A stretch of DNA of 64,000 bases from Carcharhinus amblyrhynchos (lineage: Eukaryota), in the NCBI GenBank assembly GCA_965287045.1, contig OZ336885.1:66340001-66404000 (forward strand), in the 5' to 3' direction. A model generated the notes under the pieces. The model made no database searches. It had not been told where the DNA came from and saw nothing but the letters and a program-made list of their open reading frames with translations. Shown in pieces: positions 2,524 through 62,317 of the stretch (positions are counted from its first letter, which is position 1; every line of letters begins with the position of its first letter). The translations under genes were made by a program, and so were the position numbers.

Positions 2524-2550
2524 ACGAATATCTCATCGATAAAACAAAAG
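2524..2550 (+). CDS. Micro-exon 1 (27 nt): (D)EYLIDKTK
   Basis: tatag|ACG...AAAAG|gtactg; fits 27-nt class (L at 4, K at 7). Confidence 0.8.
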
Positions 2551-3209
2551 GTACTGGCAAAAAAGTCGCTATTTTAGTCGCAACGATGTCGCAGCTCAAA
2601 TTTATTTAATCCTCTGCCCTGTCTGCATTTTTTTTGTAGATTTGCATGTCTAGTCGGAATACTTGCCCAAATAATTTGTTGATGTTGTCAGTATTTGACA
2701 GATCTTCGACACCTACATCGCATGTTCATTTCCGCTGTACAAGTCGCACGTTGCTGTAGGAAGACTTCACCAGGCTATCCATAACAGCGTTTCTTGGAAA
2801 AGATCTACGCTCTGCGGCACTATAGAGTCATGAATGGGGGTGCACATTGTTTAAAAAAAATCATCCTCATCAATAATGAAGGGAAGCCCATCACACCAGT
2901 TCAAAAACAAAGCTGAAACAGATACACCTGGATCGCACTTAGCGAAGTGTTTTAGTTCCAACTAAAATACTAACATTGAAAAACCATCTCCGATAGGCCC
3001 TGTGTCTTAAGCTACTCAAATCTTTCCATTCCAATTCTGTGAATTTATCATCGTCAACTTGAATCACTAAAGCAATAACTGTCACTATTCAGTTCACAGG
3101 AACGTAAACTCGATAATTCACTCCGCAATTTGCTCAATTGCCACGCCAAGGTTTTTCACACGTCAGGTTCCCTCCAAGTTATTCTTCTCTACACGCATTT
3201 ATATATAGG

Positions 3210-3615
3210 TGAAGACAGAGAGGGAGAGAGAGAGAGAGAGAGAGAATTACACAGATAGAAAGAACGGAAGACAGACGACANNNNNNNNNNNNNNNNNNNN
3301 NNNNNNNNNNNNNNNNNNNNNNNNNNNNNNNNNNNNNNNNNNNNNNNNNNNNNNNNNNNNNNNNNNNNNNNNNNNNNNNNNNNNNNNNNNNNNNNNNNNN
3401 NNNNNNNNNNNNNNNNNNNNNNNNNNNNNNNNNAATAGAAAACGAGAGAGACTGATAGGCAGCCAGGCAGACAGACGGACGGATGGGCGGAAGGACGGAT
3501 GGATAGGTGAATTTATGGATTTTGGATTGATGTTTGGATTGGTGAATGATAGGACTGACGGACAGGTAGATGAATGACTAGAAAGATGAAATGTTGGCGC
3601 ACCGGACGGCCAGAT
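3210..3615. repeat. (GA)n and GGAT/GGAC-type microsatellite flanking a 153-N assembly gap (3281-3433)
   Basis: gagagaga tract, run of N, degenerate ggat/ggac/gaca units. Confidence 0.9.
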
Positions 3616-3770
3616 GAAGTTTTCTGCGTACAGAAATGTGTGAACGATTGCAACACAATAGCATGCTCAGGTTGATTTCTACCGGTTTTGATCCCTATCT
3701 TATATAAATGCATGATGTTTAAATGGATTACTGCTCACAATAATTGTTTTGTAAATTTATTTTGTGCTAG

Positions 3771-3806
3771 TAATAGAAACGTTGAAAAGTGATATTGTGG
3801 AAGCAG
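3771..3806 (+). CDS. Micro-exon 2 (36 nt): (V)IETLKSDIVEA
   Basis: gctag|TAATAG...GCAG|gtgagg; second in-frame TAG acceptor 6 nt downstream. Confidence 0.82.
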
Positions 3807-5937
3807 GTGAGGTTTTTTTCACTCCTCTGGACATCCTATTTCTCCAGCATTGAAACATCCTCTCCCTTTCCTTAATTATTGCATTTTCTGAACGCCTTGT
3901 ACACAGGGATGTCTATCAAACATTCTTGCGACTCTTTGAATCAGATCGGTTCATTCCACAGCATTATAATGCTGGAACGCATTACTTGTTGATAATGACA
4001 CAATAGTATTGGCAATACATCATGAAGTGGCATTAATGCAGAGGAACACTGAATTTGATGCATGCACTTTGTCCTTCTGCCGACTCCACTTATGAACTTA
4101 CTATTTTCCTCAAAAGGGTGCTGTGACTCGTCCAACGTCGTTAGTACTCTTCCATTGCTGTCTACTATTTCCACTTCCTTCACATAACTCCTGAAGTTAC
4201 ATCGGCTTAATGCACACCCCCTCCATTTCCGCCCAGCTTCATCCTTCCCACAACTCTGTTCAGATGCAACTCGAGAAGTCACCCAGTTCTGATCTGCCAC
4301 AAGGCCATTCGAGATGCCGAGGCATCAAAAGTCATCCCTTCTGCAACTTCTTTCAAGTCGTGCATCTGCCTAGCACCGGTTTCCGCACTCACTTTAAAGT
4401 TACAGTGGGATAAATACAACTATTACTATCTTGGAGCTCCCGTTTTCTAATTTTCTGCCCAGACGTCGAACTTCCGATTGCAGGACCCCATCCGCTTACC
4501 TTCAACACATTGGTTCGCATGTCAAACAAACGTTGCCTGACCATCTCCCTCAAACCGAATGTGCTCCATGTCACCCTGGTCGCTGGCATCAGGAAGACAA
4601 GTTTTCTTTGAACAACGTCGATAATGACAGGAAACATGATTTTTTTTTCAAATAAATAATAATTGTCTTATCAATAAAGCTCTCCCCTCTTCTTACTTCT
4701 CTCCTATATAGACAACCCTCTCGCCTTGCGACAGATCAGAATCTAACTGCACCCTTTGAGGAAGCAATCTCCTTATCACATTTCCAAACCGAAATCCGAT
4801 TCATGACTTAAACTATAGTGGACCCATGCCATTCCTTTCCATTCGCCCTGGACCACCTGTTGGTCCCCGATTCCCAGACTGCAATGAAGCCTTTACGTTG
4901 TGGTACCGTCATTCTCTCAAGATGTCATTTACGTATTTCTCACCATTGTGTGTTTGAGACTCTTATGCAAATTTTAAAAAATACTTAATTTTGGTTTCTT
5001 TCATTTGCCGATTTTCTGCCCGGCATTGAATGCAATAGACCTTAATGAGCCTAATTGTACGTTGTGTAAACATTTCTTCAAGTTTTCATTCAGCTTCAAT
5101 GAAACAGTGTTGGATCCCCAGAAAAGTAAGGATTTGACAAAACAGATAACAGGAAACTAGGTAGAGAAGAGTGTTTCGCTTTGAATGTAATTGATATTTT
5201 TGGCTCCTTGAAAGCTGTGTAGCCTTAACAGCAAAAATGCGCTCGGAAATTTGTCACGTCTGATATTCCACCATTTGATTACAGTGCTAATTTCATTTGG
5301 GGGATGAAACCTTCAATTGATACATCTATTTTCATGAGCTTAGAAATGCCAAAGTCTCTGCAATGCGAATGAAACATATTTACTCTCCTTATTCTTTTTT
5401 TCTCTCGCTCTCTCTCCCCTTCGAATAGAGCAATGCAGATTCACGTCAATTTCTATTTGCTTTGCTTTAATGTTGCGCCTCCACAACGCTGCCATTCCAT
5501 CAGTTACTGTTCGTCCGAAAGCGTGGCTCTTATACATTGGTGCTCAAGCTCCGGAGAGAAACGTGCAGTCATCCAATTCCTACTCAGACATGCGTGAGAG
5601 AAAACGAAAAATTCCAGCTCATAGCTCCCAAAGATATTGAGAATTGTAGATGGTGATATATTTTAGATTGAATCTCTGCAGTACGAAGAGACCTTCGCCG
5701 TACAAAACGGGCCATTCAAGTAGCATTATTATAGTAAATATTGGTAGGCTGTTTCACACCTGAAGTGTTGTTGTTGGTTGTAACATATAGCACAGTACAG
5801 CAATATTTTAGTTGTCACTAACTTCTGGGGTTTTCTGAAGCGATGGCGTTTGCTGCAAATATGGACCAAGGTCATGTTTGTTTATTTATTCTTTTCTGCC
5901 AGCAATGTTACTCATCCACAAATGTTTATTCCTTTAG

Positions 5938-5964
5938 AAAACGACTTGCTGCAGAAAGAAGCTG
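5938..5964 (+). CDS. Micro-exon 3 (27 nt): (E)NDLLQKEA
   Basis: cctttag|AAAAC...GCTG|gtaatt. Confidence 0.85.
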
Positions 5965-6200
5965 GTAATTATGCAAATCATTTTCATGTGTTTGAGTAAC
6001 TTTTATTCCACTGATTTTTTTTTTTCAGAATTACATTGAGAAAATGTCCACTAATCCTATGACAGTATTATAAATATTACTAGCTTATAAATTAGATAAT
6101 AACTAAGAATGGCTGACATGACAGTTTGGGAATTTCAATTCAGCCAGTCAGATAGATCTGGAAAGAAAACGCTGGCAATTGAACCTTCAAACAATGAAGC

Positions 6201-6202
<2 letters not shown>

Positions 6203-6238
<36 letters not shown>
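6203..6238. repeat. (GT)n microsatellite
   Basis: uninterrupted gt dinucleotide run. Confidence 0.95.
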
Positions 6239-6240
<2 letters not shown>

Positions 6241-7904
6241 CGATAACAGAATCGTTTTCCCTATAGGGAAGGAAATTAACCAATTTCCAACTTCAGACGA
6301 ACAAATATTTAAGTATCCATCTGGCAATTAGTTCATGGCTCTCAAAACTACTGCAGATACACCAGTAACGACGTACCTCTGTTAGCGAAGTAATCGTTAA
6401 GAAAAGCTGTTGTTGATGCATTTTTTATTCTGCCTACAGTTCGTTTTACAACAAGAAATCCAAAGACTTTTTTTTTCATGGCGAAGTTAAACTGGAGCTC
6501 CGATGCTTATTTGTTTAGCATATAATACTAAGTTGCATTTAACATAAGTTGATCTTTATAATTATCTTAAAACTATTTGATACACATGGTCCCTGCCTAT
6601 GACGCTTCGCTATTGGGCGTACAACATTCTCAAGATTCAAGAATTGCTGGACTGGAAAACATATTCGATACAACTATTCCCTGCAAATATATTAAGAAAT
6701 GCTTTGGCTCTCTGACCATAAATTCCTCCTATCAGAATAGTTGCTAGGACGATCAAACCTCACAACTATCACGAAATTTAGTTTCTTGTTCTTCTTTGTA
6801 CGTCATTGTAGATACATAGGTACATATAAATTTGGATCAGGGGTCCATCATTCGGACGTTTGGGTGTTACCTGTTGCTCAACGTGGTTATGGCTGATATT
6901 GTATCTCAGAACTGTTTGCCCGCACTCACACTATAACTTATTTGACCCTGAGAGCCGAGAAATGTTTCGATTTCCTTCCGTTATCGGACAACAAATTTTA
7001 TGAAATTGGGCACACAAAATGGAAGCAAACTAAAGCTACCCTCAGAGCCCCTCCACTAAGAATCACGAAGTGACAGACACCGATCAGGAGGCAAGAGCAT
7101 GCTTTTAGAATGCAAATGAGGGCTAGCACATAAGGGAAGCTGGACAGGATGGCACCTACAGGAACTAAATCCCCACCCCATCAAAATCAGCACCTTTAAA
7201 ACAGTCAAACAATCCATGGAGACACCTAAAAATAGCATAGTTAAGGAAACATTCCTGGCCCCTCAAAACCTCTTTTGAGATCAATGACACACCTATGGTT
7301 CAAACCCCGGAGATTCTAGACTATTAAATAACCGATCAGACAAAACAATTAGCACACACCTAAAACAATTTTCTCAACACTTGGAAACATCGAGACAGAA
7401 TGGCTAAGGTCGAATTCTGTAAATAAAGCATTAGCATTTGAATCGCATACTGCACCGAAGTTCTGGTATAACTGCTGCGAGGGACGGGCAGAGCGCTTTC
7501 GGGACAGTCCGATTGTATGTCCTGACTGTGCTTCTCCGTCGACGTGAAAGAAAATAAAGCTGTGCCGTTATTGAACTTCACCCTGAGTCCGTAGTGGTCG
7601 TTTCGCCCACTCGTGCTAACACTTCTAAGCTATACTTAGTGATTGCCTGTGCAGTCATCTTTGGCAGAACATTGTTTTCGCCATCCTTTGAGTGAATACA
7701 CTTTTCTTGAACTCAGTTCTAAATGGCATACAACGTACCCGATCTGCGGCACTTTTTTTTGTTTGTTTGTTTTTGCCCTCAAGACTGCCCCAGCCAGAGA
7801 AAGTAACAAAGTCCGTCCAGACCATCTGAATTACAGTACGTTCCATCTAGAAATGAATGTAAATGTTTTGTCCGATTTATTTTCAACCAGTTAATGACAT
7901 ATGT

Positions 7905-8027
7905 GGACCAGAATTCTTCTGTTGCGCCAGCCAATGGAATTGTCGGGGACGGATCACACAAGTGCGCATTGACGTCGGGTGGGATTCTCCTGCTTTGAGG
8001 CGCCCGCGACCGGAGAAATCCTAGTCC
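7905..8027. mobile_element. Short non-autonomous DNA element (MITE, possibly Harbinger-type)
   Basis: imperfect terminal inverted repeats ggaccagaattcttct ... ggagaaatcctagtcc around a CpG-rich core. Confidence 0.55.
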
Positions 8028-8829
8028 TGAATATTTAGAGCAGCCCACTTATTCATCACCCTTCAGTCTTCACTAAACAGGAAGTTTCTGGGACATCCGT
8101 TGCCTCCAGCAATCTACTATTCCCCGAATCAAAGCAAACACACTCCCCCGCCTCACCGTTCCATTCCATCCTTCCCGAAATTCTGTTGTTTCATTCTGAA
8201 CTTAAGTTCTCATCATGTTTTCATCAAGCCAATCACTAAATATATACTAGAACGAAATCGAAACATTTCTCAGCTCTCAGGGCGAAATAAGTTACAGTGC
8301 GAGTGCTGACAAACAGTGCCGAGACAGAATATCAGCCATAACCACGTTGAACAGCAGGGCACACCCGATGACACACAGTGGCAGAAGTCGTTCACCTCCT
8401 ATGTGTTTTTCCCTTCATAATGCGTTACGGATCAGCCTTATTGAATTATTACGCGCGTGCGTGCAGGATTGTGCAAATCTTGCATGGGGACTTGGAAACG
8501 ATGGTGTTTCCGCGCATTTTTCCATTATCTTTCAACAGTGAGGAGTTCCTTGGTTTGCAATATGCTGGTTCCGAGACTTTGTATGTGGGTGTGCATGCAG
8601 TTCGATTGGCGTTAATTAGGCGTCCTGAGTCTTTTTTTATGGATGAGCAGTGCAAATAATAAATGCTTGTACTTACTTGCACAACAAAAATACGCGAACT
8701 AATCAATAACTTGCCTCCATTGTTCGGTGTACATACATTTTTCACCATTCCAAGACTACTCTCCAGCACATCAAATTGAGGGCAGCAGTGTTCCCTGTCC
8801 CACGTATTTCTATCCATGCCAAACAATGA

Positions 8830-12512: not shown

Positions 12513-12548
12513 AATTGCAGAAACAGAAGGAAATCTGTCAAGGATATG
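12513..12548 (+). CDS. Micro-exon 4 (36 nt): (E)LQKQKEICQGY
   Basis: tgtgacag|AATTG...TATG|gtatgt. Confidence 0.82.
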
Positions 12549-13059: not shown

Positions 13060-16000
13060 GACTGGAGCAAAGCAGAGAGGGAGCGATTCGTGTCAGCGGT
13101 GCTGAGAGTAAGAGATTTTTTTTTTAATCTACCTTTTTATCGGAGTTTTTTTTCAGTTCAATCAGTAAACCGGAAGTAGGAAACAAGCGGCACTGCACGT
13201 GTAAAGTCTCCCACCCTTCCTCCTCCTCTAACCTAATAAAAGACTCGGTTGAGAGCAGGTAAAAATAAAGAGAGGAGTGGGAGCAAGGGTAGTAGCAAGT
13301 GGTACGCGAGACTGCGCAAACACAGATGTCAGTCAGTAGTGTGTGGAAGGTTTAAAAATGAGGGCACTCTATCAGCGGGCAGAGGAGTGAGAGGCGCCAG
13401 AGTGAGACGGCTTCAGCGTGAACAGGCAAAGGCCAGGGTAGGTTCCCCTAAGTTTTTGATACTTCAGAGTAGAAAGATGCCAGGCAGGATGTTGGAAAGC
13501 TCCTCTTGCAGGGAGTGTTAGGGAACTGGAGCAGGAGCTGGATTTGAAGTTTATACGTAATAGCTTCATTGCGGTAGTTACGCCAAAGGCACAGAGCACA
13601 GGTAATTAGGTTACCATGAGGTGGAGGAAGGGGAAAGGACAAGTAGAAGAGGGATCCCCTGTGGCCATCCACTCCCCCCGCCCCCCCCCCACCCCGCCCC
13701 CCGCTACTCATTACGTATATTGCTTTGGATACTGTTGTGGACGATTCTTTACCTGGGACAAGCTGTGGCAGCCGAATTTCTGGCACTGAGTCTGGTTCTG
13801 CAGCGCAGAAGGTGGGTGGGGGGGGCGGGGGGGGCGGGGGGGGTGGGGAAAAGGAGAGTTGTAGTGATAAGGGACTCAATAGATAAAGGTACAGACAGAA
13901 GGTTCAGTTGTCGTGACAGAGATTCTTGGATGGTTTGTTGCCTCCCGGGTGCCAGTGTCAGGGATGTCTCTGATAGTGTGCACAGCATTCTGAAGTGGGA
14001 GGGTGATCAGCCAGTTGTCATGGTATACGTTGGTACCAATGACGTAGGAAGGAAGAGTGTGGAGGTCCTGAAGAGTGAGTATAGAGAGCTTGGTAGGATG
14101 CAGGACCCCGAGAGTAGTAATCTCAGGATTTCTACTTGTACCACGTGCCAGTGAGAGTAAGAGCAGGATGCTCAGGCAGATGAACACGTGGCTGAGGAAC
14201 TGGTGTGGGGAGCAGAGTTTCAGATTTCTAGATCGTTGGGACCTCTTCTGGGGAAGGAAGGACGCGTACAAGAGAGGTGGGTTACACCTGAACTAGAGGG
14301 GGATGAACATACTTGCAGGGAGGTTTGCTAGTGTTATTGGGGAGGGATTAAACTAGATTTGCAGGGGGAGGAACCAGGGTGCCAGAGCAGATAGTGGAAC
14401 GGGAGCGAAAATGAATGATAGTTCATGCAAAATCACAAATAGAAGGATTATGTGTGGTGGTAATTATCTTCGGAGGTGTGTCTATTACAGTTCCAGGAGC
14501 ATTGTGCAGAAGGCAGAGGAGTTGAGGGCATCGATTAACACATGGAATTATGACATTATAGCCATTAGTGAAATTTGGTTACGGGGCGGGGCAGGACTAG
14601 CAGCTCAATGTTCCAGAGTTCCAATCTTTCAGAGATAGAGACGGAGGATTGAAGGGTGGGGGTGGCATTGCCAATCAGGGAAAATGTTGCAGCAGTGCTC
14701 AGGCAGGACAGATTAGAGGGCTTGTCTACCGATGTCACATGGGCGGAGATGAGAAACAGGAAAGATATGACCACATTAATGGGGTTGTACTATCGACCAC
14801 CCAATAGTCAGCTAGAATTGGAGGAGCGAATCTGCAGAGAGTTAGCAGCCAACTGCTGGAAACATAAGGTTGTGATAGTAGGGGATTTTATTTTTTCCAC
14901 ATATAGATTGGAACTCCCATACTGGGTGGAGTGGTATTTGTAAAACGTGTTCAGAAAGATTTTCTAAATGAATATGTAGAAGTACCAACTAGAGAGGATG
15001 CAATGTTAGATCTCCTATTCCAAATGAGTTAGGACAAATGACAGAAGTGTTTGTGTGGGGAGGGGGGGTGGGGGGGGCACTTTGTTTCCAGTGATCATAA
15101 CGCCATTAATTTCAACTTGATCATGGATCAAGATAGATCTGATCCTCGGGTTGACGTTCTGAACAGGAAAGAAGGCCAAATTTGAAAAAATGAGAAAGGG
15201 TTTTAAAAGCGTGGATTGGGATGGGCTGTTCTCTGGCAAGGATGTGATTGGTAAGTGGGAGGCCTTCAGTGGAGAAATTTTGAGAGTGCTGAGTTTGTAT
15301 GTTCCTGTCAGGATTAAAGACAAAGTGAATAATAATAAGGAACCTTGGTTCTCGAGGGATATTGCACATCTGATTAAGAAGAAGAGAGAGATGTATGGCA
15401 TGCAGAGGCAACAGGGAACAAATACAATCGTTGAGGTGTATAAAAAGTGCAAGAAACTACTTAACAAGGAAATCAGGAGGGCTAAAAGAAGACATGAGGC
15501 TGCTTTTGCAGTCAAGGTGAAGGATAATCCAAAGAGCTTCTACACGTATACTAAGAGCAAAAGGATAATAAGGGAAAAAATTGGTCCTCTTGAAGATCAG
15601 AGTGATCGGTTTTGTATGGAATCAAAAAGAAATGGGGGAGATATTAAATGTTTTTATTGCATTCGTGTTTACTAAGGAAACTGGCATGGAATCTACGGGA
15701 ATCAGGCAAACAAGTAGGGGGGTCATGGAACCTATACAGATTAAAGGAGAGGAGATCTTGCTGTTTTGAGGCAAATCAGAGTAGATAAATCCCCAGGACG
15801 GGTATTCCCTCGGACCTTGAAGGAGACTAGTATTGAAATTGCAGGGGCCTTGGCAGATATATTTAAAATGTCGGTATCCACGGATGAGGTGCCAGATGAT
15901 TGGAGGATAGCTCATGTTCTCTGCTGTTTAAAAACAGGCTCGAAAAATAATCCAGGAAATTATAGGGCAATAAGCTTGTCTTCAGTAGTAGGCAAATTAT

Positions 16001-17335
16001 TGGAAGCAGTAATAAGAGATAGGATCTACAAATACTTGGATAGACAAGGACTTATTAGGGGCAGTCATGGCGTTGTGCGTGGTTGGTCATGTTTAACCAA
16101 TATATTAGCGTTTTTCGAGGAGCTTACTCGGAAAGCGGATGATGGAAAGGCAGCGGATATTGTCAACATGGACTTCAGTAAGGCCTCTGACAAGGCCCTG
16201 CATGGGAAGTTAGTTAGGAAGCTTCAGCCGCTACGTATACATGGAAAGTTAGTACATTGGATTAGACATTTGCTCAATGGAAGAAGCCAGCCAGTGATAG
16301 TGGAGGATTGTTCCTCTGTGTGGAGGCCTGTGACTAGTGGTGTGCCACAGGGATCAGTGCTGGGTCAATTGTTGTTTGTCATCTCTGTCAATGATTTGGA
16401 TGATAATGTGATAAATTTGATGAGCATATTTGCTGATAACACAAAGATTGGAGGTGTAGTGGACAGTGAGGGAGGTTTTCAAAGCTTGTAGAGTGATATG
16501 GACCAGCTAGAAACATGGCAGATGGAGTTTAATGCAGACAAGTGTGAGGTATTGCACTTTGGAAGGACAAACCAAGGTAGAACATACAAGGTAAATGGTA
16601 GGACGCTGAAGAGTGTAGTAGAACAGAGGGATAAGGAATACAGATACATAATTCCCTAAAAGTGGTGTCACAGGTAGATAGGGTCATAAAGAGTGTTTTT
16701 TGGAACATTGGCCTTTATAAATCAAAATATTGAGTATAAGAGTTGGTATGATATGGTGAGGTTGTATAAGACATTGGTGAGGCCGAAGTTAGAGTATTGT
16801 GTGCATTTTGGTCACCTAATTACATGAAGGATATTAATAAGGTTGAAACAGTGCAGAGAAGGTTTACAAAAATGTTGCCGGGACTTGAGAAACTGAGTTA
16901 CAGAGAAAGGTTGAGTAGGTTACGATGCTATTCCCGGCAGTGTACAAGAATGAGTGGAGAGGTGTACAAAATTATGATGGGTATAGAGAGAGTGAATTCA
17001 AACAGGTGTTTTTCTCCACTGAGGATAGGCGAGGGAAAAAAAAACTAGAGGACATTGGCTAAGGGTGAAGAGGTAAACGTTTAAAGGGAATATTGGGGGT
17101 GGGGCGGGCTTCTTCAAACAGAGAGTGGTGGGAGTGCGGAATGAGCTGCCAGATGAAGTGGTAAATGCAGGCTCACGTTTACCATTTAAGAAAAACTTGG
17201 ACAGGTACAAGGATGAGAGGGGTGTGGAGGGATATGTTCCAGGTGCAGGTCAGTGGGACTAGGCAGAAAAATGATTCAGCACAGCCAAGAAGGGCCAGAA
17301 GGCCTGTTTCTGTGCTGTAATGTTCTGTGGTTCTA
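13060..17335 (+). mobile_element. Near full-length but disrupted CR1-clade LINE (5'UTR, SGNH-esterase ORF1, APE-RT ORF2, 3' tail)
   Basis: ORF1 motifs VVVIRDSI...VCCLPGASVRDV...VGTNDVG; ORF2 motifs GLYYRPPN, PGNYRAISLSSVVGKLLE, SGVPQGSVLG, FADNTKIGG; many frameshifts and stops. Confidence 0.93.
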
Positions 17336-17847: not shown

Positions 17848-17874
17848 CGCGAGGAAACTCGCATAAAAATGAAG
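17848..17874 (+). CDS. Micro-exon 5 (27 nt): (A)RGNSHKNE
   Basis: tttaaag|CGCG...GAAG|gtaaga; right size and slot, K at 7, but polar residue at 4. Confidence 0.72.
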
Positions 17875-18151: not shown

Positions 18152-18187
18152 AGATAGCGATGTTGAAGAATACGCTTCTAGATTGTG
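18152..18187 (+). CDS. Micro-exon 6 (36 nt): (E)IAMLKNTLLDC
   Basis: cgtacag|AGATA...TTGTG|gtgagt. Confidence 0.87.
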
Positions 18188-20278: not shown

Positions 20279-20305
20279 AACAAAATCTCGCTCAGAAAGA
20301 TGAAG
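20279..20305 (+). CDS. Micro-exon 7 (27 nt): (E)QNLAQKDE
   Basis: cttacag|AACAA...TGAAG|gtacgt. Confidence 0.87.
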
Positions 20306-20654: not shown

Positions 20655-20690
20655 ATATAATCAAAATGAAAGCCAGTATTAAGCAATGTG
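20655..20690 (+). CDS. Micro-exon 8 (36 nt): (D)IIKMKASIKQC
   Basis: ctcgcag|ATATA...ATGTG|gtgagc. Confidence 0.87.
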
Positions 20691-22072: not shown

Positions 22073-22099
22073 ACGGGAAGATGAAGTCCAAAGAGTCAG
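22073..22099 (+). CDS. Micro-exon 9 (27 nt): (D)GKMKSKES
   Basis: long T tract, cttgcag|ACGGG...GTCAG|gtaact. Confidence 0.87.
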
Positions 22100-24115: not shown

Positions 24116-24151
24116 TGGTCGATAAACTAAAAAGTGACTACGAAGATTGTG
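24116..24151 (+). CDS. Micro-exon 10 (36 nt): (V)VDKLKSDYEDC
   Basis: ccttcgacag|TGGTC...TTGTG|gtaagt. Confidence 0.88.
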
Positions 24152-25843: not shown

Positions 25844-25870
25844 AACTAAAGCTCGCAAACAAACAGAAAG
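25844..25870 (+). CDS. Micro-exon 11 (27 nt): (E)LKLANKQK
   Basis: ctctttag|AACTA...GAAAG|gtaagg. Confidence 0.88.
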
Positions 25871-29251: not shown

Positions 29252-29287
29252 CACTCGATAAACTGAAAGAAAACCTTAATGAAATAG
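29252..29287 (+). CDS. Micro-exon 12 (36 nt): (A)LDKLKENLNEI
   Basis: catttgcag|CACTC...AATAG|gtgagt. Confidence 0.88.
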
Positions 29288-31572: not shown

Positions 31573-31599
31573 GTCTGAATTTAAGCCGCAAAGACAGGG
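31573..31599 (+). CDS. Micro-exon 13 (27 nt): (G)LNLSRKDR
   Basis: tttactag|GTCTG...CAGGG|gtaagc. Confidence 0.86.
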
Positions 31600-34619: not shown

Positions 34620-34655
34620 AATGCAACGAATTAAGGGAGAGCCTTGAAGCTAAAG
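34620..34655 (+). CDS. Micro-exon 14 (36 nt): (E)CNELRESLEAK
   Basis: aatatgcag|AATGC...TAAAG|gtaaat. Confidence 0.84.
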
Positions 34656-38631: not shown

Positions 38632-38658
38632 ATCAAATATTAGCAAAGAAAGAAAAAG
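38632..38658 (+). CDS. Micro-exon 15 (27 nt): (D)QILAKKEK
   Basis: ctggctag|ATCAA...AAAAG|gtaaca. Confidence 0.85.
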
Positions 38659-40161: not shown

Positions 40162-40197
40162 AATTGGAGAAACAGCGGAACAGTAACCTGAACTGCG
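40162..40197 (+). CDS. Micro-exon 16 (36 nt): (E)LEKQRNSNLNC
   Basis: ttttcccaacag|AATTG...CTGCG|gtcagt. Confidence 0.83.
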
Positions 40198-41334: not shown

Positions 41335-41361
41335 AAGAAAGCTTGAGAGTGAAGCAGAAGG
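41335..41361 (+). CDS. Micro-exon 17 (27 nt): (E)ESLRVKQK
   Basis: attgcag|AAGAA...GAAGG|gtaagt. Confidence 0.86.
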
Positions 41362-45649: not shown

Positions 45650-45685
45650 AGATTCAAAAGCTTAAAGAAGACATCAATGATCAAG
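45650..45685 (+). CDS. Micro-exon 18 (36 nt): (E)IQKLKEDINDQ
   Basis: cccctgttag|AGATT...TCAAG|gtgaac. Confidence 0.87.
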
Positions 45686-47887: not shown

Positions 47888-47914
47888 AACAACAAATAGG
47901 CAAGAAAGACAGAG
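47888..47914 (+). CDS. Micro-exon 19 (27 nt): (E)QQIGKKDR
   Basis: ccttgtag|AACAA...CAGAG|gtaatt. Confidence 0.87.
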
Positions 47915-48631
47915 GTAATTATACCAACCGTTTATCAGCTAACTTTTTTCGCTATTATGTTTCGTTTTCATTTACATGCTGGTGTTGTATTGCGTGCACA
48001 GATACTGGTTTGCTCTTTCACATTTCACCTTAACCAATTGTATACATTTTGCACGCCTTCAAAGTGATTGTCCTGGAATATATCCACAAACCTAAATATT
48101 TGTGTAAAAGGCTTTGAACGGCTTTGAACTTTCGAACATGTTTTCTCCTGTGCAATAAGAAATACATCATTATAGAAGTAAATCAATGAACATTTGTCAC
48201 ACAAATGGAAAATCTGTTAATTTATTAGTGGCAAATATTTCGCCAACGAAATATAAGAGCGTCTGCATGGATGAAATAAAGGCCCACTCAGAAACATGTA
48301 TGTTGATCCAAAGGCAATCCCTCGAAAATTTAGGGTAATACTAGATTTATATGTTTTATGCGAGAAAATAAATGCTGAACTAAAGTAATTGGAAAAATTG
48401 AGCATTTTCCAGCTCCTTTAATTCTCGTCATGTGCACTATCAGTAGATCCTGCATTGACACTAGACAGGACATTCCACATGCTGACAGATTAAGATTGAA
48501 TATTAAAGTGGCTGCCAAATTGGGAACACGTTGTGGTTCATAACGGTAAGGGTGGGCTTCTGTACAGTGTCACCTTGGGTGATGACTGTAACCAGATAGA
48601 CACCAGCCTCTATAAAGTTGTGATAGGTAAT

Positions 48632-51352
48632 CTGCTGATTAAGGATAGCATCAAGGTGGTAGCAAGGGATGATATTGGAGCCAAGGAGCAGAACGTGGAA
48701 TCGTTGTGGGTGGAGATTAGGAGCAGCAAAGGGAGGAAGACGCTGGTGGGTGTCGTCTATAGGCCCCCGAATAATGATCTGGAGGTGGGGCGGGCTGTTA
48801 ACGCGCAAATAAGTGCGGAGTGCAGGAATGGGACGGCCGTAGTTATGGGGGATTTCAATCTGCATATTGATTGGTCGACCCATGTTGGACGCGGTGGGCT
48901 CGAGGAGGAGTTCTTTGGATGCTGCCAGGATAGTTTCCTGGAACAGTGCGTGTTGGAGCCGACGAGGGAGCGAGCTATCTTGGATCTCGTGCTATGTAAT
49001 GAGGCGGGTAGAATTAGGGACCTTGAGGTGAAGGATCCTCTTGGGGAGAGTGATCATTGTATGGTGGAGTTTCTGGTGCAGATGGAGGAGGAGAAAGTGG
49101 GTTCCCGGACACGCGTACTTTGTTTGAATAGAGGGGAGTACGGTAGGATGAGAGAAGAATTGGCGAATGTGGACTGGGGCAGCGCGTTGGAGGGAGGGTC
49201 TGTTGAGGAGCAGTGGAGGATCTTTAAGGAGATCTTTCTTGGTGCTCAGCGGAAATTTATTCCGATGGTCAAAAAGGACAGTAGGAGGGGAGGTAATAAG
49301 CCGTGGATAACGAAGGAGGTGAAGGAAAGTGTTAAATTAAAAGCGGAGGAATTTAGAGTAGCTAAGAGTAGTGGGCGAGAAGAGGATTGGGAGAGGTTTA
49401 AATGTCAACAAAGATTGACAAAGAAGTTGATAAAGAAGGGTAGGAGAAATTATGAAGCTGGGCTAGCGCTTAATATAAAAAAGGATAACAAGAGTTTTTA
49501 TAAATATATAAAAAGGAAGAGGCTGGCTAGGGTGAACGTTGGTCCTTTAGAGGATGAGAAAGGGGACCTAGTGGTACGGGATGGGGATATGGCTAAGGTA
49601 TTGAATAACTTTTTTGTTTCTGTCTTCACGGAGGAGGACGTGAATAATTTGCCGGGTGTTAGTGATGGAAAGGTGGTCGGACTGGAGGGTCTTAATGACA
49701 TTACTGTTACTAGAGAGGGGGTGCTCGACAGACTGGAGGGGCTGATTGTGGACAATTCCCCAGGACCGAATGGAATGCATCCGAGGATTCTGAAAGAAAT
49801 GGCGGAGGTGATAGTGGATGCCTTGGTGGTTATTTTCCCGACGTCGCTGGATTCCGGGGAAGTGCCGGAGGATTGGAAAACGGCTAATGTTACGCCGTTG
49901 TTTAAGAAGGGTGCCAGGCAAAAGGCGGGGAATTATAGGCCGGTTAGTTTAACGTCTGTGGTACGTAAAATGTTAGAATCCGTCATTAAGGAGGAAATTG
50001 CGAGGCACCTTGAAGGGAATTGCTTGACAGAGCCGACGCAGCACGGTTTCATTAAAGGGAAGTCGTGTCTGACAAATTTACTGGAGTTCTATGAGGATGT
50101 GTCTAGGGCGGTGGATAGAGGAGAGCCGGTGGATGTGGTCTTTCTAGATTTTCAGAAGGCGTTTGACAAAGTACTTCACAAGAGGTTATTGCAGAAGGTC
50201 GAGGGACATGGAGTTGGGGGTAGGGTGTTAGCGTGGATAGAGGATTGGTTGTCAAATAGGAGGCAGAGAGTGGGGGTCAACGGGTGCTATTCGGATTGGC
50301 GGATGGTGACTAGTGGAGTGCCCCAGGGGTCGGTGCTGGGGCCTCAGCTTTTTACCATTTATATAGATGATCTGGAGGAGGGAACCGAGTGTAGGGTGTC
50401 GAAATTTGCTGATGACACCAAGATTGGGAGAACGGCAAATTGTGCGGAGGGTGTGGAGAGCCTGCAGAAGGATCTAGATAGGCTGGGCGAATGGGCCAGG
50501 AAATGGCAAATGGAATTTAATGTTGGCAAGTGTGAGGTGGTTCACTTTGGTAGGAAGAATGGTAGGAAGGACTATTACTTACGAAACGAAAAACTGCAGC
50601 AGGCGACGGTGCAGAGGGACCTCGGGGTCCTTGTGCATGAGTCGCAAAAACCCAGCTTGCAGGTGCAGCAGGTGGTCAGGAAGGCGAATGGGATGCTGGC
50701 CTTCATAGCGAGGGGGATTGAATATAAAAGTAGGGAGGTCTTGCTGCAGCTGTATAGGGCATTGGTGAGGCCGCAGCTGGAGTACTTTGTGCAGTTTTGG
50801 GCGCCGCACCTGCGCAAAGATATTTTGGCCTTGGAGGGAGTGCAGAGGAGGTTTACTAGGCTGATGCCGGAGTTGAGGGGGTTGAGCTATGAGGAGAGGC
50901 TGAATAAACTAGGCTTGTACTCGTTAGAGTTTAGAAGAATGAGGGGAGATCTCATTGAGACGTATAAGATGATGAATGGGATGGATAGGATAGAGGTGGA
51001 GAGACTCTTCCCGCTCAAAAAAGACAGTAGGACTAGGGGGCACAGCCTTAAGATAAAGGGCGGGGGGCGGTTTAGAACGGAGTTGAGGAGGAACTTCTTC
51101 ACTCAAAGGGTGGTGAATCTCTGGAATTCTCTGCCCGTTGAAGTGGTGGAGGCTGCCTCGCTAAATATTTTTAAGACGCGGGTTGATGGGTTTTTGATAA
51201 GAGAGGGGATTAAGGGTTATGGGGAGAGGGCGGGAAAGTGGAACTGAGCCACGACAGATCTGCCATGATCTTATTGAATGGCGGGGCAGGCTCGAAGGGC
51301 TAGATGGCCTACTCCTGCTCCTATTTCTTATGTTCTTATGTTCTTATGTTCT
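48632..51352 (+). mobile_element. Young 5'-truncated CR1 LINE with uninterrupted ORF2 (partial APE endonuclease + reverse transcriptase)
   Basis: stop-free frame to 51247 with VGVVYRPPN, MGDFN, LDLVL, SDH, NYRPVSLTS, GVPQGSVLGP, FADDTK; (ttcttatg)n tail; recognisable CR1 protein starts at LLIKDSI. Confidence 0.96.
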
Positions 51353-51658: not shown

Positions 51659-51694
51659 AACTGGAAAAGCTGAGGAAGAAGCTTCAAGATTCTG
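51659..51694 (+). CDS. Micro-exon 20 (36 nt): (E)LEKLRKKLQDS
   Basis: cccccataag|AACTG...TTCTG|gtgagc. Confidence 0.86.
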
Positions 51695-53151: not shown

Positions 53152-53178
53152 AACGAAAAATGACCTCAGATCAAGAAG
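53152..53178 (+). CDS. Micro-exon 21 (27 nt): (E)RKMTSDQE
   Basis: catcttag|AACGA...AGAAG|gtaagg. Confidence 0.84.
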
Positions 53179-53870: not shown

Positions 53871-53871
53871 T

Positions 53872-55070: not shown

Positions 55071-55258
55071 GTAACGTCCACACTTGAAGAATCATTCTTA
55101 CTCGAATAGACTTTTTTTTTCAACCCACATAATCCGAGTCAATATATTACATAGTTTCCATACCTGAGGAAGGAAGATTGTTTAAATTTGTCACAGTCGC
55201 AACCATTAAACTTACCAACATTGCAACTTGTTGCATTAACTCTATATGTTGGATTTAG

Positions 55259-55285
55259 AACTGAAGAAAAAGGGTGGAATCAAAG
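55259..55285 (+). CDS. Micro-exon 22 (27 nt, in a 36-nt slot): (E)LKKKGGIK
   Basis: gatttag|AACTG...CAAAG|gtaagt. Confidence 0.72.
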
Positions 55286-55954: not shown

Positions 55955-56060
55955 GGTGCATTGACCTGAACAGGCGCTGGGCTGTGGCAACTATGGGATT
56001 TTCACAATAACTCCATTGTTGCGTTAATGTAAGCCTTACTTCTGTTTAACAAATAAAATA
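55955..56060 (+). mobile_element. SINE 3' fragment
   Basis: gggattttcacaataactccattgttgcgttaatgtaagcc resembles the tail of the SINE at 35736-36045. Confidence 0.6.
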
Positions 56061-56199
56061 CTAAGTTGACTACTGCATCAAATTACAAAGTGAGAGGAAT
56101 CAGTTGTGTTCATTAGTATTTCACGGGCAAAAACTAAAATAATTTATTGCCTTATATTAAGGTTATTGCAGAGGATAACACAAATAGTCTCTTCTATCT

Positions 56200-59100
56200 A
56201 CGATCTGCTCCCCATGACACCATTTCAACTACATCTCAGTTTATCCCCAGAATGTACACCGATGTGAAGGAGAGCAACTGCCTATCTCGTCCCATTGGCT
56301 ATGATGCGCGTGGCGTGTGTTCTCTGGAGGCCCTCAACATTAAGGCCCTGACTGTCTTCCAGGTGCCTGGGACATTTCCATGAGACCTTCTTCATCCCGC
56401 TGCCCCTGATATGCCCCAGTGTCAGAGAGGGGGATGTCAGGAAGTGTAACCACACCACAGTTTCCTATTGAAATCTCTGGCCTGGGCTCCACCCCTTTCT
56501 CTTCCCTTGGGATTCCTGTGGGCACCTATATAACTGTGTGGGACGGAGCGACAATCCACAATGAGCTCCAGAAGCTCCGGGCCTCCTGGCCCCGCCACTT
56601 CTGGAGGGCCACCTGCATCCTTTCCAGGTAGGTTGAGGCCTCTGATATGGCCACTTGAGTCGGGGGCCACTTGTCAATGGCCGCAGCAAGTGACCTCTGA
56701 AACTGGGCCACGCCCTGCACCTTCAGCCATGACACTCTGCAACTGGGCCACGTTCACAAGATCTGATGCTGTAGCTCTTTCTGTCCCAGTGTTGTCCCTC
56801 TGGATCTCCGGTGAGGTCTGGAGCCTCTCAGCCATGGGCCGCAGGACCTAAAGAAATGTGTTCAGCCCCTCAGCTGTCGCCCACTTTATCTCGGCGCGGC
56901 TCTCTGAGAATCTTGTGGTCTGTTATGGACATGGTCATCGTTTGCAGCCTGCCACTCATGCTGACGATTCCCTACCCCAGAACTTCCATCACGGAGGCCA
57001 CCTTTGCACTGTTGGCCTGGGAACCACGAAAGACAGAGAGTATCTGCTCCGCCTGAAAGCTTTCCGATTCCTCCCAACAGCCTTGCAGCTGTAACATTGT
57101 GACCGTCAGCGCCCCATGCATTCCCTGACTTTGTTGCTGCACCTCCAACAGCTGATGAAACAATGGTCTCAGAGCCCAACATTTCGCCTGAAGCCTGCTG
57201 AGTCCTCGCCACTGGCAGGCACCCGCGGGTCAGACGCATGGTATGTTCTTTGCTCCAGCTGATGCACGTTATCAGATCTGTCGTACTCACCAGAAAGTTA
57301 CTCAGAAGCCTCGCAACTAACTGGACACACCATCATGCCAGTATCTATGCTGGTGAGGTGGAAGCTGGCGCCAAAAAATAAAGCACCCTTAGAAGCCTCT
57401 TCTTCCGAGGATGTACCCAACCTCTCTGAATCAGGATGGGCAAGCGCCGTAGCGGGGCCACGGTGCTGGATGGTCCCGTGGAGCCCGGATCTGCCTCTGC
57501 AACACAAGACACAAGTGTAAGGGAAGGAGGGGAATCCGGAATGCACAAATGTGATTCACATTTCTCCATTGAATATAGAACAAAGCACGAAGAATATTAT
57601 ATTACTTCATCAGGCCCGTCAGGTATCCAAGCCTGCAGCGACCAGGCTGCCCATCTGAATTATAACACCTTACCCTTCCGCGGACCATATGCCTCCATTT
57701 CCATTCCATTCACGGAGCTGCAAAAACACTCCTTAAAAGTGTCTCTGGTTTCTGCCTCCGCGACGTCCCTTCACAGTGAGCTCCAGGCGCCCATTGCCCT
57801 CTCTATACAAGTAAACATGCCTCGTACATCTCCTTTAAACAATGCCCGCGCACCCAAAACTGATACCCCCAAGAAAGTGCTTCAAATTGATCGGACGCCC
57901 AATCTTCAAAGGAGGTGAGGACCAAAGGTCCGGCTCACCACTCCCTGTCATCGCCCTCTCTCTGCTGTTATGGGCGGTCTCCGCCTGTGGAGACACAAGG
58001 AGCAATGAAACAAAAGATGGCGCGACTCCTGCAAAGTGGCTCTTAGAATGCTAGCCAATTTACTTTTGAGGGAGGGGGCGGTGTAGGAAGGTGGTGTTTG
58101 GGGGCCAGTGGTAGGAAGCATACAGGCTGGGGATGGAAGGGTCTGGGGACGATTTGAGGGAAGATGTGAGATGGGGATCACCTTCAAAGCTCCTGTTTCC
58201 CTCTTTTCGGGCTCAGTGCCATGGCACTAACCAAGGTGCAGACTGCCTCCCAAATCACCAGCCTCCCTAGGCCTGCGCGTTCCTGGGAGGAAGAGTGTGC
58301 CCCAACTTGCCTCTGCGCATCCAGCAGCCTCCGCAGGTTGGCCTCAGTAAATTGCAGGGCTGACCGTTTTTTTCTCTCTCTCTCTCTACACTGTCTGCCT
58401 CCCTGAGCATCCTTGTTTTATTTTAATGGAGCTGCCCCTCGTTAGGGCTGATCAGCTGCAAGTAGTTTGGCAGCACATTTCAGCATTGTAGATGTATTTT
58501 GCTTGTAAGCATTGAGGGGAGTGCACGTCAGCACTTGAAGGTGTGCTAGCGGGGGAGGGAGTGATTGGGGACAGGGGAGAGTGAGGGAGGTTTCATACAG
58601 CCATCGAATTCGGGAGGAGATGGTGGCTTTGTGCAGAATGGTCCGGGGTGGTGGCGGAGTACACTGTGCATGAGGTTGGTGGGGGAAGAAGGAGGACGGA
58701 TCTCTACCTGAGATCCGTGGCGGCGGGGGGGAGGGGGGGGCGGGGGAAGAGGAGGGAAATCACTCTGACTAAGATCTGTGGAAGGAAGGAGAGTCTACTG
58801 CCATTCAGCCTGAGATCAGTGGGGTGCGGGGGAGACCACAGCCGCTCTGCCTCAGATCAGTGGAGGGGAAGTGAGGTCACCGCCCTCCTGTCTGAAATCA
58901 GTAGGGGGAGGGGGGGCAATGGGGGCCCGCTGCCACTCTGCATGAGATCAGCGGAGGGAAGTGGAGAAGGGCGTCACGATCAGTCTGTATGTTTGATATG
59001 TGAAGGGATAAGGTCTCAGCAATTTTATGGGAGCAGGACAAATTCTGGAGGGTGGCATTATCCGGCCCGGGAGGGGTGTGGCAGGGGAGGAGATGGGAGC

Positions 59101-59330
59101 ATTATATAAAATCTTTTTGCATGGCATTTCGAAGTTCCAATCGCACCTGCAGTGTTTCTGGGGCGCAGAGCCCCGCCCAAAGGTTTGTATAGCGCGATTT
59201 GGAATCGCTGATATTTTTGCAGGCAGACTGTGTATGGGGGCGCCTCAGAACGAGCCAAAAGGTCGGATCTGGAGCAAACCCAGTTTCAAGTCCGCCCAGA
59301 ACTTAGAATGCAAATGGTAAAAGAGGGCCC
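56200..59330 (-). mobile_element. Decayed Harbinger-type DNA transposon carrying Myb/SANT-like ORF remnants
   Basis: GC-rich block; minus-strand LQFTEANLRRLLDA...WEAVCTLVSAM near 58190-58370; terminus-like ggtaaaagagggccc at 59316-59330; left end uncertain. Confidence 0.55.
57570..57850 (-). mobile_element. CR1 3' fragment inserted in the Harbinger remnant
   Basis: reverse-complement CR1 3' end pattern (ggaccatatgcctccattt..., ctctggtttctgcctcc..., gagctccaggcgccca). Confidence 0.55.
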
Positions 59331-59568
59331 AATGTGAATTCACAATCCGCTCCCTGTTATTTTGGCATTTCAGTGCATACCACCGTCGATGGTTATCACT
59401 GCGACCTGGGTTCCGCTAATGTTATCGTAATATTGTCCAATTCTGAGGAAAGTGCAACAAAATGCTATATATATATATTTCAATCTTGTCATATAAAACC
59501 AGGCATGATGTTCTTTTTCCAGAAGTTGCTGTTATTAATCCAAAATGTTTGTCCTTGTTTTATTACAG

Positions 59569-59595
59569 ATGAACAAATGGAGAAGCTGCAACGTG
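59569..59595 (+). CDS. Micro-exon 23 (27 nt): (D)EQMEKLQR
   Basis: ttattacag|ATGAA...ACGTG|gtaaga. Confidence 0.86.
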
Positions 59596-59877
59596 GTAAG
59601 AACCATGACATCACAGTCACTGGAGACTGAAGGATCTGTTCCAACTCGTACATCACCTGATTAGCCGGCGTTTAGCTGAAGCAACGGCACTGGAGAATTG
59701 GGATGGATTCAGTCAATATTGTCAGGGGATGGATTGAAGCAGAGTGCAGAGGTAACAAACAGAAATAAAGGTGAATGCTAGTGCTGGGGGAAAAAAATGT
59801 TGTTCCACTTCAGCTAGCAACAAAGCAGAAAATACTATAATTTGCGAACAAAAGAAGAATCAGCATCAACCACATTT

Positions 59878-60185
59878 CAAAGTGAACTTATCGGCTCACA
59901 TGTAGACTTACATTAACATTACAATGAAGTTATTGTGGAAACCCCCTCATCGCCAGTCTGCAGCATTTGGTTACATCGAGGAAGAATTTAGCATCGCCAG
60001 TGCAACTAACTGGCACCTCATTCAGGCTGTGGGAGGAAACCAAAGCACTCGGAGGAAACCTACAGAGACACCGAAGAAATGTGGGGAGAATGTGCAGACT
60101 CTACCCAAACAGTGGCACGGGCTGGGAATCGAACCCTGATCTCTAGCGCTGTGAGGCACCAATGCTAACCAATGTGCCACTGTGA
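59878..60185 (-). mobile_element. tRNA-derived SINE (HE1/V-SINE-like)
   Basis: reverse complement of cacagtggcacattggttagcattggtgcctcacagcgctagagatcagggttcgattcccagc. Confidence 0.88.
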
Positions 60186-61716
60186 TACAAGTTTGAAAGG
60201 CGCAAAGGTAAACTGCAAGCACAGAGTTATGTCTCTGCATGAAGGAAGAGGTAATCGGCATGTGGCGCAAACATAGTTAAGACACGACACTTAATCATCA
60301 AACACACAAAAAAATTAGAGCTTCTAGAGAAGGGAAATGGAGCTTACGAATTATTAAATGTTAGGGAAGACGTTGTTGTGATTGAAGTATCGCATGTCAC
60401 TGAAGTGGTCAATACCACTTGACCAATGATGAGAATCAGTAAGGGATTAATCATAAGACGAGTTTGGATAGGCTGGAAATGCAATAATTTAGAAAGAGCT
60501 TCAGGGTCTTCTCCTTTGCTCTGGTGTAAAATTCTGCAGCAACATGGTTTCTATTTGAACGTGTTGCAGACATTATCAATCCTGTGTTGTCGAGGCATAA
60601 CGACATTTATGTGAACAAATATTGTGTTTCGAATGACCTTGACATTGTAGTGCACGAGTGCAAACAACGCGTTGACTCAAAACATCGATTATTTACAAGA
60701 AAGGTCCAAACATACTTCACTGCTATAACGAAAACGAAAAACAAGCAATTCACCCATCCCATTCATAAAACGTTTGGCTTGCATATCACGGCATCTGCTG
60801 ATTTTTTTAGAAATAAGCACGTGACACCTAGTGTTGCAAAAGATATATGGGAATCATAAGACACCAGTACCACACATTGACACCAGATTTAGACTCGAAT
60901 TTATCCCTCTAGGAACTTGTCACATTTAAATCACGTGTGGCAAGCACTGTTTCCACTGACCTGCTAGTGACTTGGCCGCCACTCTATTTCTCTTCCAGCT
61001 TCCCAGCTCATGCAACAGTGCCAGTTTTGTTGAAACCAATCACGATTGTAACGTGTTGCATATTCACATTACCCTTTGAGCAAAGATCTTTCTTTTCAAT
61101 TCCATATTAGTTTGCTTGGGGGCAACTATATCCTCGCAACCAACTAACGATACAAGTTCCATAAGAGGAGGTGCCATCTCCATAGCAACTCTGCCAAAAC
61201 CAACGATAAATTTAAAACACGTTTGTTGATTTTCAGCTCTGCAATTTTTTTAATCTATCATGTGCCCCGCCTAATTATTACATCACCCATGTAACTCTAT
61301 ACGCCAGCACGCTTATTGTTGTATAGCCCAGGTTCAAGTGAAGAGCGATTCTGAGATGTAGAGATTCAATGCATTGCCTGGTGGTGTTGAAGAGGCAAAT
61401 TTCACCCGACCGTAAGAAAAATGAATTTTACAGGTAATTGAACAGCGCAATTTCGGCTATGCAGAACTGGTTGGAACTTGGTTCTAATTGCAGGAAACCA
61501 AATAGTCTCTGCATCATAACCAATTGTCCCATTTTGCTGCAGCCATTCCATAGAGATTTTAAAGAATGCAAAATTCACAGCGTTTTACAGGTTCAGGAAT
61601 TGAGATCATATTCCCTGGTTGAAACATCTTAAACTAGGGAGGAGGCGACCATGGTAAGGATTCAATCCTATAGACTTGAGATGAACCGTCATGTGTTGTA
61701 TCGCACCATTATAAAT

Positions 61717-62020
61717 GGCTGCCCTGTGGCACAGTGATTAGAACTGCTGTTGGATTCGATTCCCGGCTTGAGTTACTGTCTGTGTGGAGTTTGCACATTC
61801 TCTCCGTATCTATATGGGTTTCTTCCGGGTGCTTCGATTGCCTCCAACAGCACAAAGACGCGCATGTGAGGTGGATTGGCCATGCTAAATTGCCCATTAG
61901 TGTCAGCACTAACTCGGGTCAATGCATGGGCTACGGGAATATGACCTGGGTGGGATTGCGTTCGGTGTAGACATAAAGGGCCGAATGGCCTTCTTCTGTA
62001 TGGCATGAATCTACGATTTT
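61717..62020 (+). mobile_element. tRNA-derived SINE (HE1-like)
   Basis: gtggcacagtgattagaactgctg head, ttcgattcccggc, ggtggattggccatgctaaattgccc core, gggccgaatggcctt tail. Confidence 0.85.
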
Positions 62021-62281
62021 ATGTGCGATGATTAGAAATCTGGATTTTCTGAAGCAGGGAGATAAACATATTCAGTACTTTCAGATCGCTGCTTATGGAT
62101 TTTATTGGACTCAAAGGAACAAAAAGGTTCTGCAGAAAGAGCCAGAATGTTGAGTTGATTTACACCGTTCTAGCACTATTTTAATCAATTACAAAACCTG
62201 ATCAAACAGCCATAGTTCCCCCTATTAAACATATGTATATTTATATTCGAATAGATACTCAACTCTGCATTTTTTTTTCAG

Positions 62282-62317
62282 AAACACAAGTATTGAAAAA
62301 GAAACTTCAAGATTTAG
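62282..62317 (+). CDS. Micro-exon 24 (36 nt): (E)TQVLKKKLQDL
   Basis: ttttttttcag|AAACA...TTTAG|gtgaga. Confidence 0.88.

Follow-up and report, generated by a model that had tools for sequence, protein, structure and literature searches.

What is encoded by 24 minute segments, each of 27 or 36 nucleotides (nt), that lie scattered over a 64,000-nt stretch of DNA from Carcharhinus amblyrhynchos? The stretch, hereafter the window, corresponds to positions 66340001-66404000 of contig C16 in a genome of 2.9 Gb (G000), and places outside it are numbered on the window's scale, as genome position minus 66340000. The answer reached here is that the segments probably belong to one gene of about 170 predicted micro-exons, spread over 900 kb, which would encode a coiled-coil rod, 1,700 residues or more in length, with a B30.2 domain at its end.

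An initial scan for segments of 27 and 36 nt that are preceded by AG and followed by GT returned matches that include the 24, between 2524 and 62317, that the original prediction had described as G-final, phase 1-1 exons (Table 1). Thirteen are 27 nt long and 11 are 36 nt long, the last base is G in 24/24, and none of the 24 overlaps a repeat of the 1.26-Mb region. Joined, they amount to 747 nt, or 249 codons; stops number 0 in phase 1 and 26 and 23 in the other two phases. A blind scan, whose criteria were chosen to avoid circularity, relied only on generic splice-site weights (approximate generic frequencies), a terminal G and an open phase-1 frame. On the plus strand of the window it found 12 matches at 27 nt and 11 at 36 nt, compared with 0 and 0 on the minus strand, and 100 dinucleotide shuffles gave means of 0.95 (27 nt) and 1.04 (36 nt), about two per shuffle, with a highest sum of 6 against the 23 real matches. 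The blind list recovers 22 of the 24 exons, misses those at 2524 and 34620, which have weak acceptors, and adds one at 56775. Alternation of 27 and 36 nt holds at 20 of the 22 neighbour steps of this list (permutation p 8e-5). The proposed 27, 36 order and the proposed comparison with the minus strand and shuffled sequence both bore out the earlier claim. The 24 segments are confirmed as a set of AG/GT phase-1 micro-exons. No duplication of an exon-plus-intron cassette was detected within the window, where the copies are on average 46% alike.

The array does not end with the window. The region examined covered 1.264 Mb (the window, 1.0 Mb upstream and 0.2 Mb downstream), and in it micro-exons continue on the plus strand both upstream and downstream, spanning from about -807 kb to +95.5 kb (about 900 kb, roughly 15 times the window length). 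The claim of a 60-kb array has to be given up: the window is a slice of a much larger array that closes in a B30.2 exon. A profile scan called 130 exons in sense and 4 in antisense (one repeat-derived call was later dropped). The union of these calls with those of a composition rule (6 exons in its antisense control), the exons of the original prediction and three tail exons placed by hand contains 173 predicted exons, which add up to 5,196 nt and 1,732 amino acids (aa). Their lengths are 27 nt in 88 cases, 36 nt in 66 (154/173 for the two classes together), 21 nt in 13 and other values in 6. The gene's 5′ end is bounded, because a second 27/36 array lies upstream of -916 kb on the opposite strand, head to head with it. 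At the other end, the terminal exon matches the SPRY profile PF00622 with 47.9 bits (E 1.7e-12); it is the only B30.2 exon of this family in the region and lies on the same strand as the array, which, as judged from sequence, would be spliced to it at +96.4 kb.

The order of the exons is reflected in the peptide. Across the first ten 21-aa units, each encoded by a 27+36 pair, hydrophobic power at a period of 3.5 residues reaches 16.5, a value attained by none of 20,000 residue shuffles and none of 20,000 shuffles of exon order (mean 1.3 in the latter). Since no exon-order shuffle attains that power, the periodicity depends on the 27/36 alternation, and the view that each pair encodes three heptads is upheld. 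Of the core positions assigned to the unit at 4, 7, 11, 14, 18 and 21, four are retained: positions 4, 11, 14 and 18 form an aliphatic core, with L/I/V/M in 9, 9, 8 and 7 of the 10 units. The other two do not fit the assignment: Lys occupies position 7 in 10/10, and the residue at position 21 varies, being Cys in 4 units. Over 129 exons of the array, a positions are occupied mostly by Leu (117) and Ile (22) and d positions by Leu (41), Lys (40) or Cys (31). Of the 40 cysteines, 31 fall at d, which makes up 14% of sites. Purines account for 68% of the array exons and A for 45%, and a second role as splicing enhancers is conceivable for the near-fixed Lys codons.

Alternation is, however, one of two modules and not the whole pattern. 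Between 36-nt exons, the 27-nt exons occur as 29 single runs, 8 triples, 6 doubles and 1 run of six. Single runs are of type A, with a hydrophobic residue at codon 4, in 28/29 cases, and 6/8 triples are of type A-B-A, where type B has its hydrophobic residue at codon 2 (p 3e-5 when types are permuted). The resulting 27-27-27-36 modules of 39 aa have hydrophobic columns at 4, 11, 18, 22, 29, 32 and 36, of which 4, 11 and 22 are partly built in by a typing that uses hydrophobic position. Five heptads plus four residues correspond to a coiled-coil stutter. The break in alternation after exon 21 is explained by this recurrent module, which exons 21-24 form with no exon missing; a 36-nt exon overlooked between 53.2 and 62.2 kb was considered and rejected, as none appeared at relaxed thresholds.

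The gene belongs to a family. The genome contains at least seven B30.2 paralogs; the close ones lie at 60.45, 61.08, 63.07, 63.15 and 63.74 Mb of C16 and at 106.38 and 103.96 Mb of C9, and the seven are 29-58% identical to the window gene's exon. Upstream of the B30.2 exon, sense 27-nt exons are present in 5/5 of the C16 paralogs and 36-nt exons in 4/5, none being found in antisense, and the tail exon order is similar. A further 200 kb into the 63.15-Mb paralog there are 10 and 8 exons (27 and 36 nt), compared with 0 and 0 in antisense. In an unrooted tree of 42 B30.2 domains, chosen from about 270 and with rows retrieved by the family's own profile, 18 cartilaginous-fish family rows are separated from 24 butyrophilin, TRIM and other rows with a branch support of 100/100, and the window gene's domain is not nested among the sampled butyrophilin domains. 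Linkage of the window gene with the major histocompatibility complex (MHC) was rejected, because all 82 of 82 MHC class I matches lie on C9 (89.6-101.1 Mb) and the gene is on C16; the two C9 paralogs are linked. MHC class I-like exons and other B30.2 genes are greatly expanded at 95-101 and 109-112 Mb of C9 and on C41, C46, C53 and C73.

Public gene models of relatives were sought by comparing a profile of eight B30.2 domains with 1.84 billion proteins, and 10 of the 150 listed matches were looked up. The best single-domain matches come from catshark, skate, electric ray, basking, epaulette and whale sharks and chimaera. Automatic annotation names them TRIM39-like, TRIM69-like, A33-like, butyrophilin-like or nuclear-pore anchor-like, and most models comprise 200-950 aa, in agreement with the expectation that annotation would miss or fragment such a gene: the models are partial or misnamed. 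The chimaera protein XP_042192744 (1,697 aa, labelled nuclear-pore anchor-like) falls inside the family's B30.2 clade, as do the catshark, skate and ray XP models, and in 8/8 family models scanned SPRY is the only domain above cut-off, with no immunoglobulin (Ig), RING or B-box. In the catshark RefSeq protein XP_038668997, four peptides are 78-89% identical to the predicted micro-exons of the 63.07-Mb paralog and stand in the same order before the B30.2 domain. Scores against a profile of 9/12-aa exons exceed the maximum of 100 shuffles in the chimaera (1,697 aa; 266 vs 120), catshark (945 aa; 189 vs 98) and skate (295 aa; 48 vs 26) models. A single-sequence structure model of the catshark protein shows long helices at low confidence (mean predicted local distance difference test, pLDDT, 55) and leaves the B30.2 domain unfolded (pLDDT <50). 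In the ESM Atlas, two SPRY-bearing clusters (1,277 and 1,579 aa) reach scores of 0.93 and 0.91 when compared with a family member and are candidates for this family or for look-alikes from other fishes; another public protein, P0001 (1,721 aa), contains eight B30.2 stretches.

Several observations weigh against parts of the exon set or against one long gene of this kind, in addition to the partly built-in columns of the stutter module. Exons 1, 5, 13 and 14 are the least secure of the 24; exons 1, 5 and 13 were accepted partly for occupying an expected slot, and their leave-one-out profile scores of 12.0, 10.2 and 6.3 fall inside the upper range of the antisense background (12.5, 8.0). (In a conservation check, one of four runs extended over exon 6, with no difference there; exon 5 was covered by 0/4.) On the plus strand, nine other length classes give 18 matches in all, so the background of this strand is above the shuffle mean; 7 of the 18 are of 39 nt and share no sites with array exons. 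With Lys at 40 of the roughly 185 d sites, the case for a canonical dimer core is weaker. Hydrophobic exons starting with ATG number 11 in sense and 6 in antisense, with no start exon above background. Splicing in Carcharhinus amblyrhynchos is a prediction, as are the relatives' public models, one of which among the four tested, that of Narcine, scores within its 100 shuffles (37 vs a maximum of 40), and word searches with the B30.2 exon returned no close ortholog protein. The runs compared with the gene cover introns in the way DNA runs do and contain no exon joints, which is neutral as to splicing. Finally, relatives' isoforms differ by a single 9-aa block in 3/8 comparisons, which supports 27-nt exons, yet means that skipping need not be paired.

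If the array is spliced as one gene, its design can be read as follows. Because all exons are in phase 1-1, the gain, loss or skipping of any of them leaves the frame intact. The heptad register would be kept only in whole modules, either 27+36 (21 aa, three heptads) or 27+27+27+36 (39 aa, with the stutter), and selection on this register is the proposed reason for the alternation. A parallel dimer is proposed by analogy with the tails of chicken BG proteins; its chains would meet through Leu/Ile at a and Leu/Lys/Cys at d. With a coiled-coil rise of 0.1485 nm per residue, the 1,732 aa predict a rod of about 257 nm, which would end in two B30.2 heads and most likely lie in the cytosol. The rod may act as a tether or spacer linking a B30.2-bound partner to a putative N-terminal anchor, a role suggested by the BG zipper protein, which acts on actin-myosin (PMC4046983, PMC8813856). 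A bolder and distinctly tentative proposal is that cartilaginous fish possess an undescribed family of Ig-less B30.2 proteins, with genes of up to a megabase, in which a two-word exon code (27+36 and 27-27-27-36) spells out a coiled coil of 250 nm. Its length and twist would be set module by module and changed through splicing in the same whole units, so that more than 170 micro-exons would form a molecular ruler that can be tuned.

The alternative that survives best is that the 900-kb run consists of several tandem BG-like genes, or of alternative transcripts, only the last of which ends in B30.2. It would account for the shift of exon classes along the run, where 21-nt exons are mostly at the start and are followed by 27/36, and for the modest size of most public models; moreover, the BG genes of the chicken make up a multigene family whose heptad tails are long and lack a B30.2 at the end (PMC8813856, PMC4046983). 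We nevertheless regard it as unlikely: an Ig regular-expression scan of the 1.264 Mb found a single match, in a downstream nectin-like exon, and none within the array, the widest exon-to-exon gap is 30 kb, all exons lie on one strand, and a chimaera model of 1,697 aa exists.

For the location of the product there is likewise an alternative, quite unlikely in our view: a hydrophobic N-terminal segment would send the protein into secretion or anchor it in a membrane, and the d-position cysteines would form extracellular disulfides that cross-link the rod. The concentration of Cys at d would suit it, as would an ATG exon of signal-like character (-882.8 kb) in front of the divergent neighbour gene, and the hydrophobic stretch that opens three public models. 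Four other models lack such a stretch, however, and hydrophobic starts that arise at background rate, via pyrimidine tracts, can explain such N-termini: several hydrophobic 'first exons' are an intron pyrimidine tract read into a micro-exon, and the 63.15-Mb paralog has 10 hydrophobic ATG exons in 200 kb, mostly within the array, which is the background rate. For this reason the signal peptides of public models were set aside. Upstream of -640 kb, no convincing hydrophobic internal exon was seen and the first exon was not located. Start candidates at -855.6 and -855.0 kb were dropped since they sit in repeats, the best candidate of the window gene among them, whereas a 120-nt exon at -847.6 kb is single-copy and plausible, without a match in the paralogs. 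N-glycosylation sequons are not enriched (3 vs 4.4 expected), and BG tails are cytosolic yet also Cys-bearing (PMC5938342). Given the background rate of hydrophobic starts and the lack of sequon enrichment, a cytosolic rod is preferred, and the product of the window gene is most likely cytosolic.

A further alternative is that the gene is an ordinary butyrophilin or TRIM gene with overlooked Ig and transmembrane or RING and B-box exons. In butyrophilins, short exons that encode heptads precede a terminal B30.2/PRY-SPRY exon (PMC6790196, PMC8813856). The window gene has both elements, the join between them being predicted, and the best solved-structure matches of its B30.2 profile are BTN3A1 (E 7e-32) and TRIM21 (3e-27). 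Butyrophilins, however, own IgV, IgC and a membrane segment and have few heptads, whereas no Ig was found here and about 170 exons, mostly of 27/36 nt, extend over 900 kb towards a B30.2 of a separate clade; most butyrophilins, though not all, are also MHC-linked. TRIM proteins (RING-B-box-coiled coil-B30.2) likewise place a coiled coil before B30.2, but RING and B-box were not found and the rod, made from micro-exons, is ten-fold longer. The 21-nt exons that open the array, as they do behind the BG membrane exon, would agree with overlooked upstream exons. Such an oversight is very improbable in view of the 138 open frames of at least 95 aa with Cys between the head-to-head arrays (-920 to -790 kb), none of which encodes Ig, RING or B-box, with the limit that a strongly diverged Ig exon could escape at this 5′ end. 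All 35 PF22705 matches lie off C16, butyrophilin-type C2 exons being on other contigs (C46 and C53), and both the separate clade and the eight models with SPRY alone speak against it.

A close parallel to the rod is the BG tail. BG is described with IgV, a membrane segment, 13-36 exons of 21 (18, 24) nt, variable in number, and no B30.2 (PMC4046983, PMC5938342). In the 21-nt exon, codon 4 is a and codon 7 is d (PMC5938342), the same heptad phase as in the 27-nt type A exon of the window gene. In both systems the coiled coil is encoded piecemeal by numerous tiny exons, each with its first codon split, and cysteines occur in the tail (PMC4046983, PMC5938342), which supports the likeness to BG and butyrophilin heptad exons that the original prediction had pointed out. 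They differ in that the BG unit is one heptad per exon, while the window array is built of 27+36 pairs or 27-27-27-36, has about five times as many exons, and passes into B30.2 with no IgV found. The window gene works like a BG or butyrophilin tail, yet the Ig domain that defines those families was not found in it. Enterophilins of the guinea pig are leucine-zipper B30.2 proteins with a long soluble heptad rod and no known Ig, far shorter than the rod of the window gene; a rod plus B30.2 without Ig resembles the window gene. No paper on enterophilin architecture was found in the literature searched. Enterophilin-1 is reported to bind sorting nexin 1 (PMC13749957). The micro-exon genes of Schistosoma, described as having many short exons and long introns (bioRxiv 10.1101/2023.06.21.545858), share symmetric exons with the window gene. 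This likeness is one of design only. Their products are secreted flatworm proteins made with extensive exon skipping, and heptad modules or B30.2 are not known from them. A list of chondrichthyan butyrophilins has appeared in which the main text does not use the word 'exon' (PMC12841164), and within the literature searched, which leaves subscription papers outside its coverage, no description of this B30.2 rod family was found. The architecture is thus unrecognised in the sense that no published description was met with, but it is not a new category, because a rod of heptad micro-exons ending in B30.2 is already known from butyrophilins. The weakest alternative, that the segments are chance AG/GT matches or remnants of a dead gene, can draw on the plus-strand background and on splicing predicted from sequence, but has next to no chance against the strand and shuffle controls, the open frame, the exon-order-dependent period and the intact B30.2 exon.

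Other features were noted in and around the locus. Intron 19 holds, at 48500-51247 on the plus strand, an open frame of 915 codons that encodes endonuclease and reverse-transcriptase domains, the ORF2 of a young long interspersed nuclear element (LINE), and a further LINE ORF2 fragment lies at 15745-16491. A retroviral env frame fragment is found at L123:3612-3923 (PF00429, E 7.5e-8). Upstream, one 36-nt exon is present four times on the plus strand (-386631 to -358073, loci L043-L046), spaced by about 10 kb and with flanks 86-93% identical; this is a recent tandem duplication. The head-to-head array occupies about 65.34-65.42 Mb of C16 on the minus strand (-996 to -916 kb) and may extend over 1.7 Mb to the B30.2 exon of the 63.74-Mb paralog; its candidate starts are the signal-like ATG exon mentioned above and a 111-nt exon at -898.9 kb. 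The next gene downstream is marked by a nectin-1-like V-set exon (L010:4956-5306, +148954 on the window's scale; E 2e-15).

Table 1. Predicted exons in and downstream of the window (window scale; 'blind scan' stands for blind splice-signal scan and frame check)
Feature	Length	Position	Strand	Basis or remark
Exon 1	27 nt	2524..2550	+	weak acceptor, less certain; outside blind list
Exon 2	36 nt	3771..3806	+	blind scan
Exon 3	27 nt	5938..5964	+	blind scan
Exon 4	36 nt	12513..12548	+	blind scan
Exon 5	27 nt	17848..17874	+	weak acceptor; alternative acceptor 17821; without core Leu
Exon 6	36 nt	18152..18187	+	blind scan
Exon 7	27 nt	20279..20305	+	blind scan
Exon 8	36 nt	20655..20690	+	blind scan
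Exon 9	27 nt	22073..22099	+	blind scan
Exon 10	36 nt	24116..24151	+	blind scan
Exon 11	27 nt	25844..25870	+	blind scan
Exon 12	36 nt	29252..29287	+	blind scan
Exon 13	27 nt	31573..31599	+	blind scan
Exon 14	36 nt	34620..34655	+	weak acceptor; outside blind list; profile scan
Exon 15	27 nt	38632..38658	+	blind scan
Exon 16	36 nt	40162..40197	+	blind scan
Exon 17	27 nt	41335..41361	+	blind scan
Exon 18	36 nt	45650..45685	+	blind scan
Exon 19	27 nt	47888..47914	+	blind scan
Exon 20	36 nt	51659..51694	+	blind scan
Exon 21	27 nt	53152..53178	+	opens a 27-27-27-36 stutter module
Exon 22	27 nt	55259..55285	+	type B (codon 2 hydrophobic), middle of stutter module
Exon 23	27 nt	59569..59595	+	third exon of stutter module
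Exon 24	36 nt	62282..62317	+	last exon of stutter module
Micro-exons downstream of window		66005, 68313, 73733, 75014, 76418, 76581, 89697, 91971, 95465	+	
Terminal B30.2/SPRY exon	171 codons	96397-96911	+	phase-1 acceptor

If the gene is spliced as predicted, sharks, rays and chimaeras would own a cluster of very large genes that annotation has split and misnamed, represented here by six B30.2 ends within 6 Mb of C16 and two more beside the MHC. It would also be a clear natural case of protein geometry dictating exon structure, in which exon lengths that keep the frame but break the heptad register are found mostly in sets that bring the register back, a dedicated stutter module among them. 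The family bears on the origin of butyrophilin and BG tails in the oldest jawed vertebrates, and it offers a direct test of whether micro-exon splicing is coupled in pairs.

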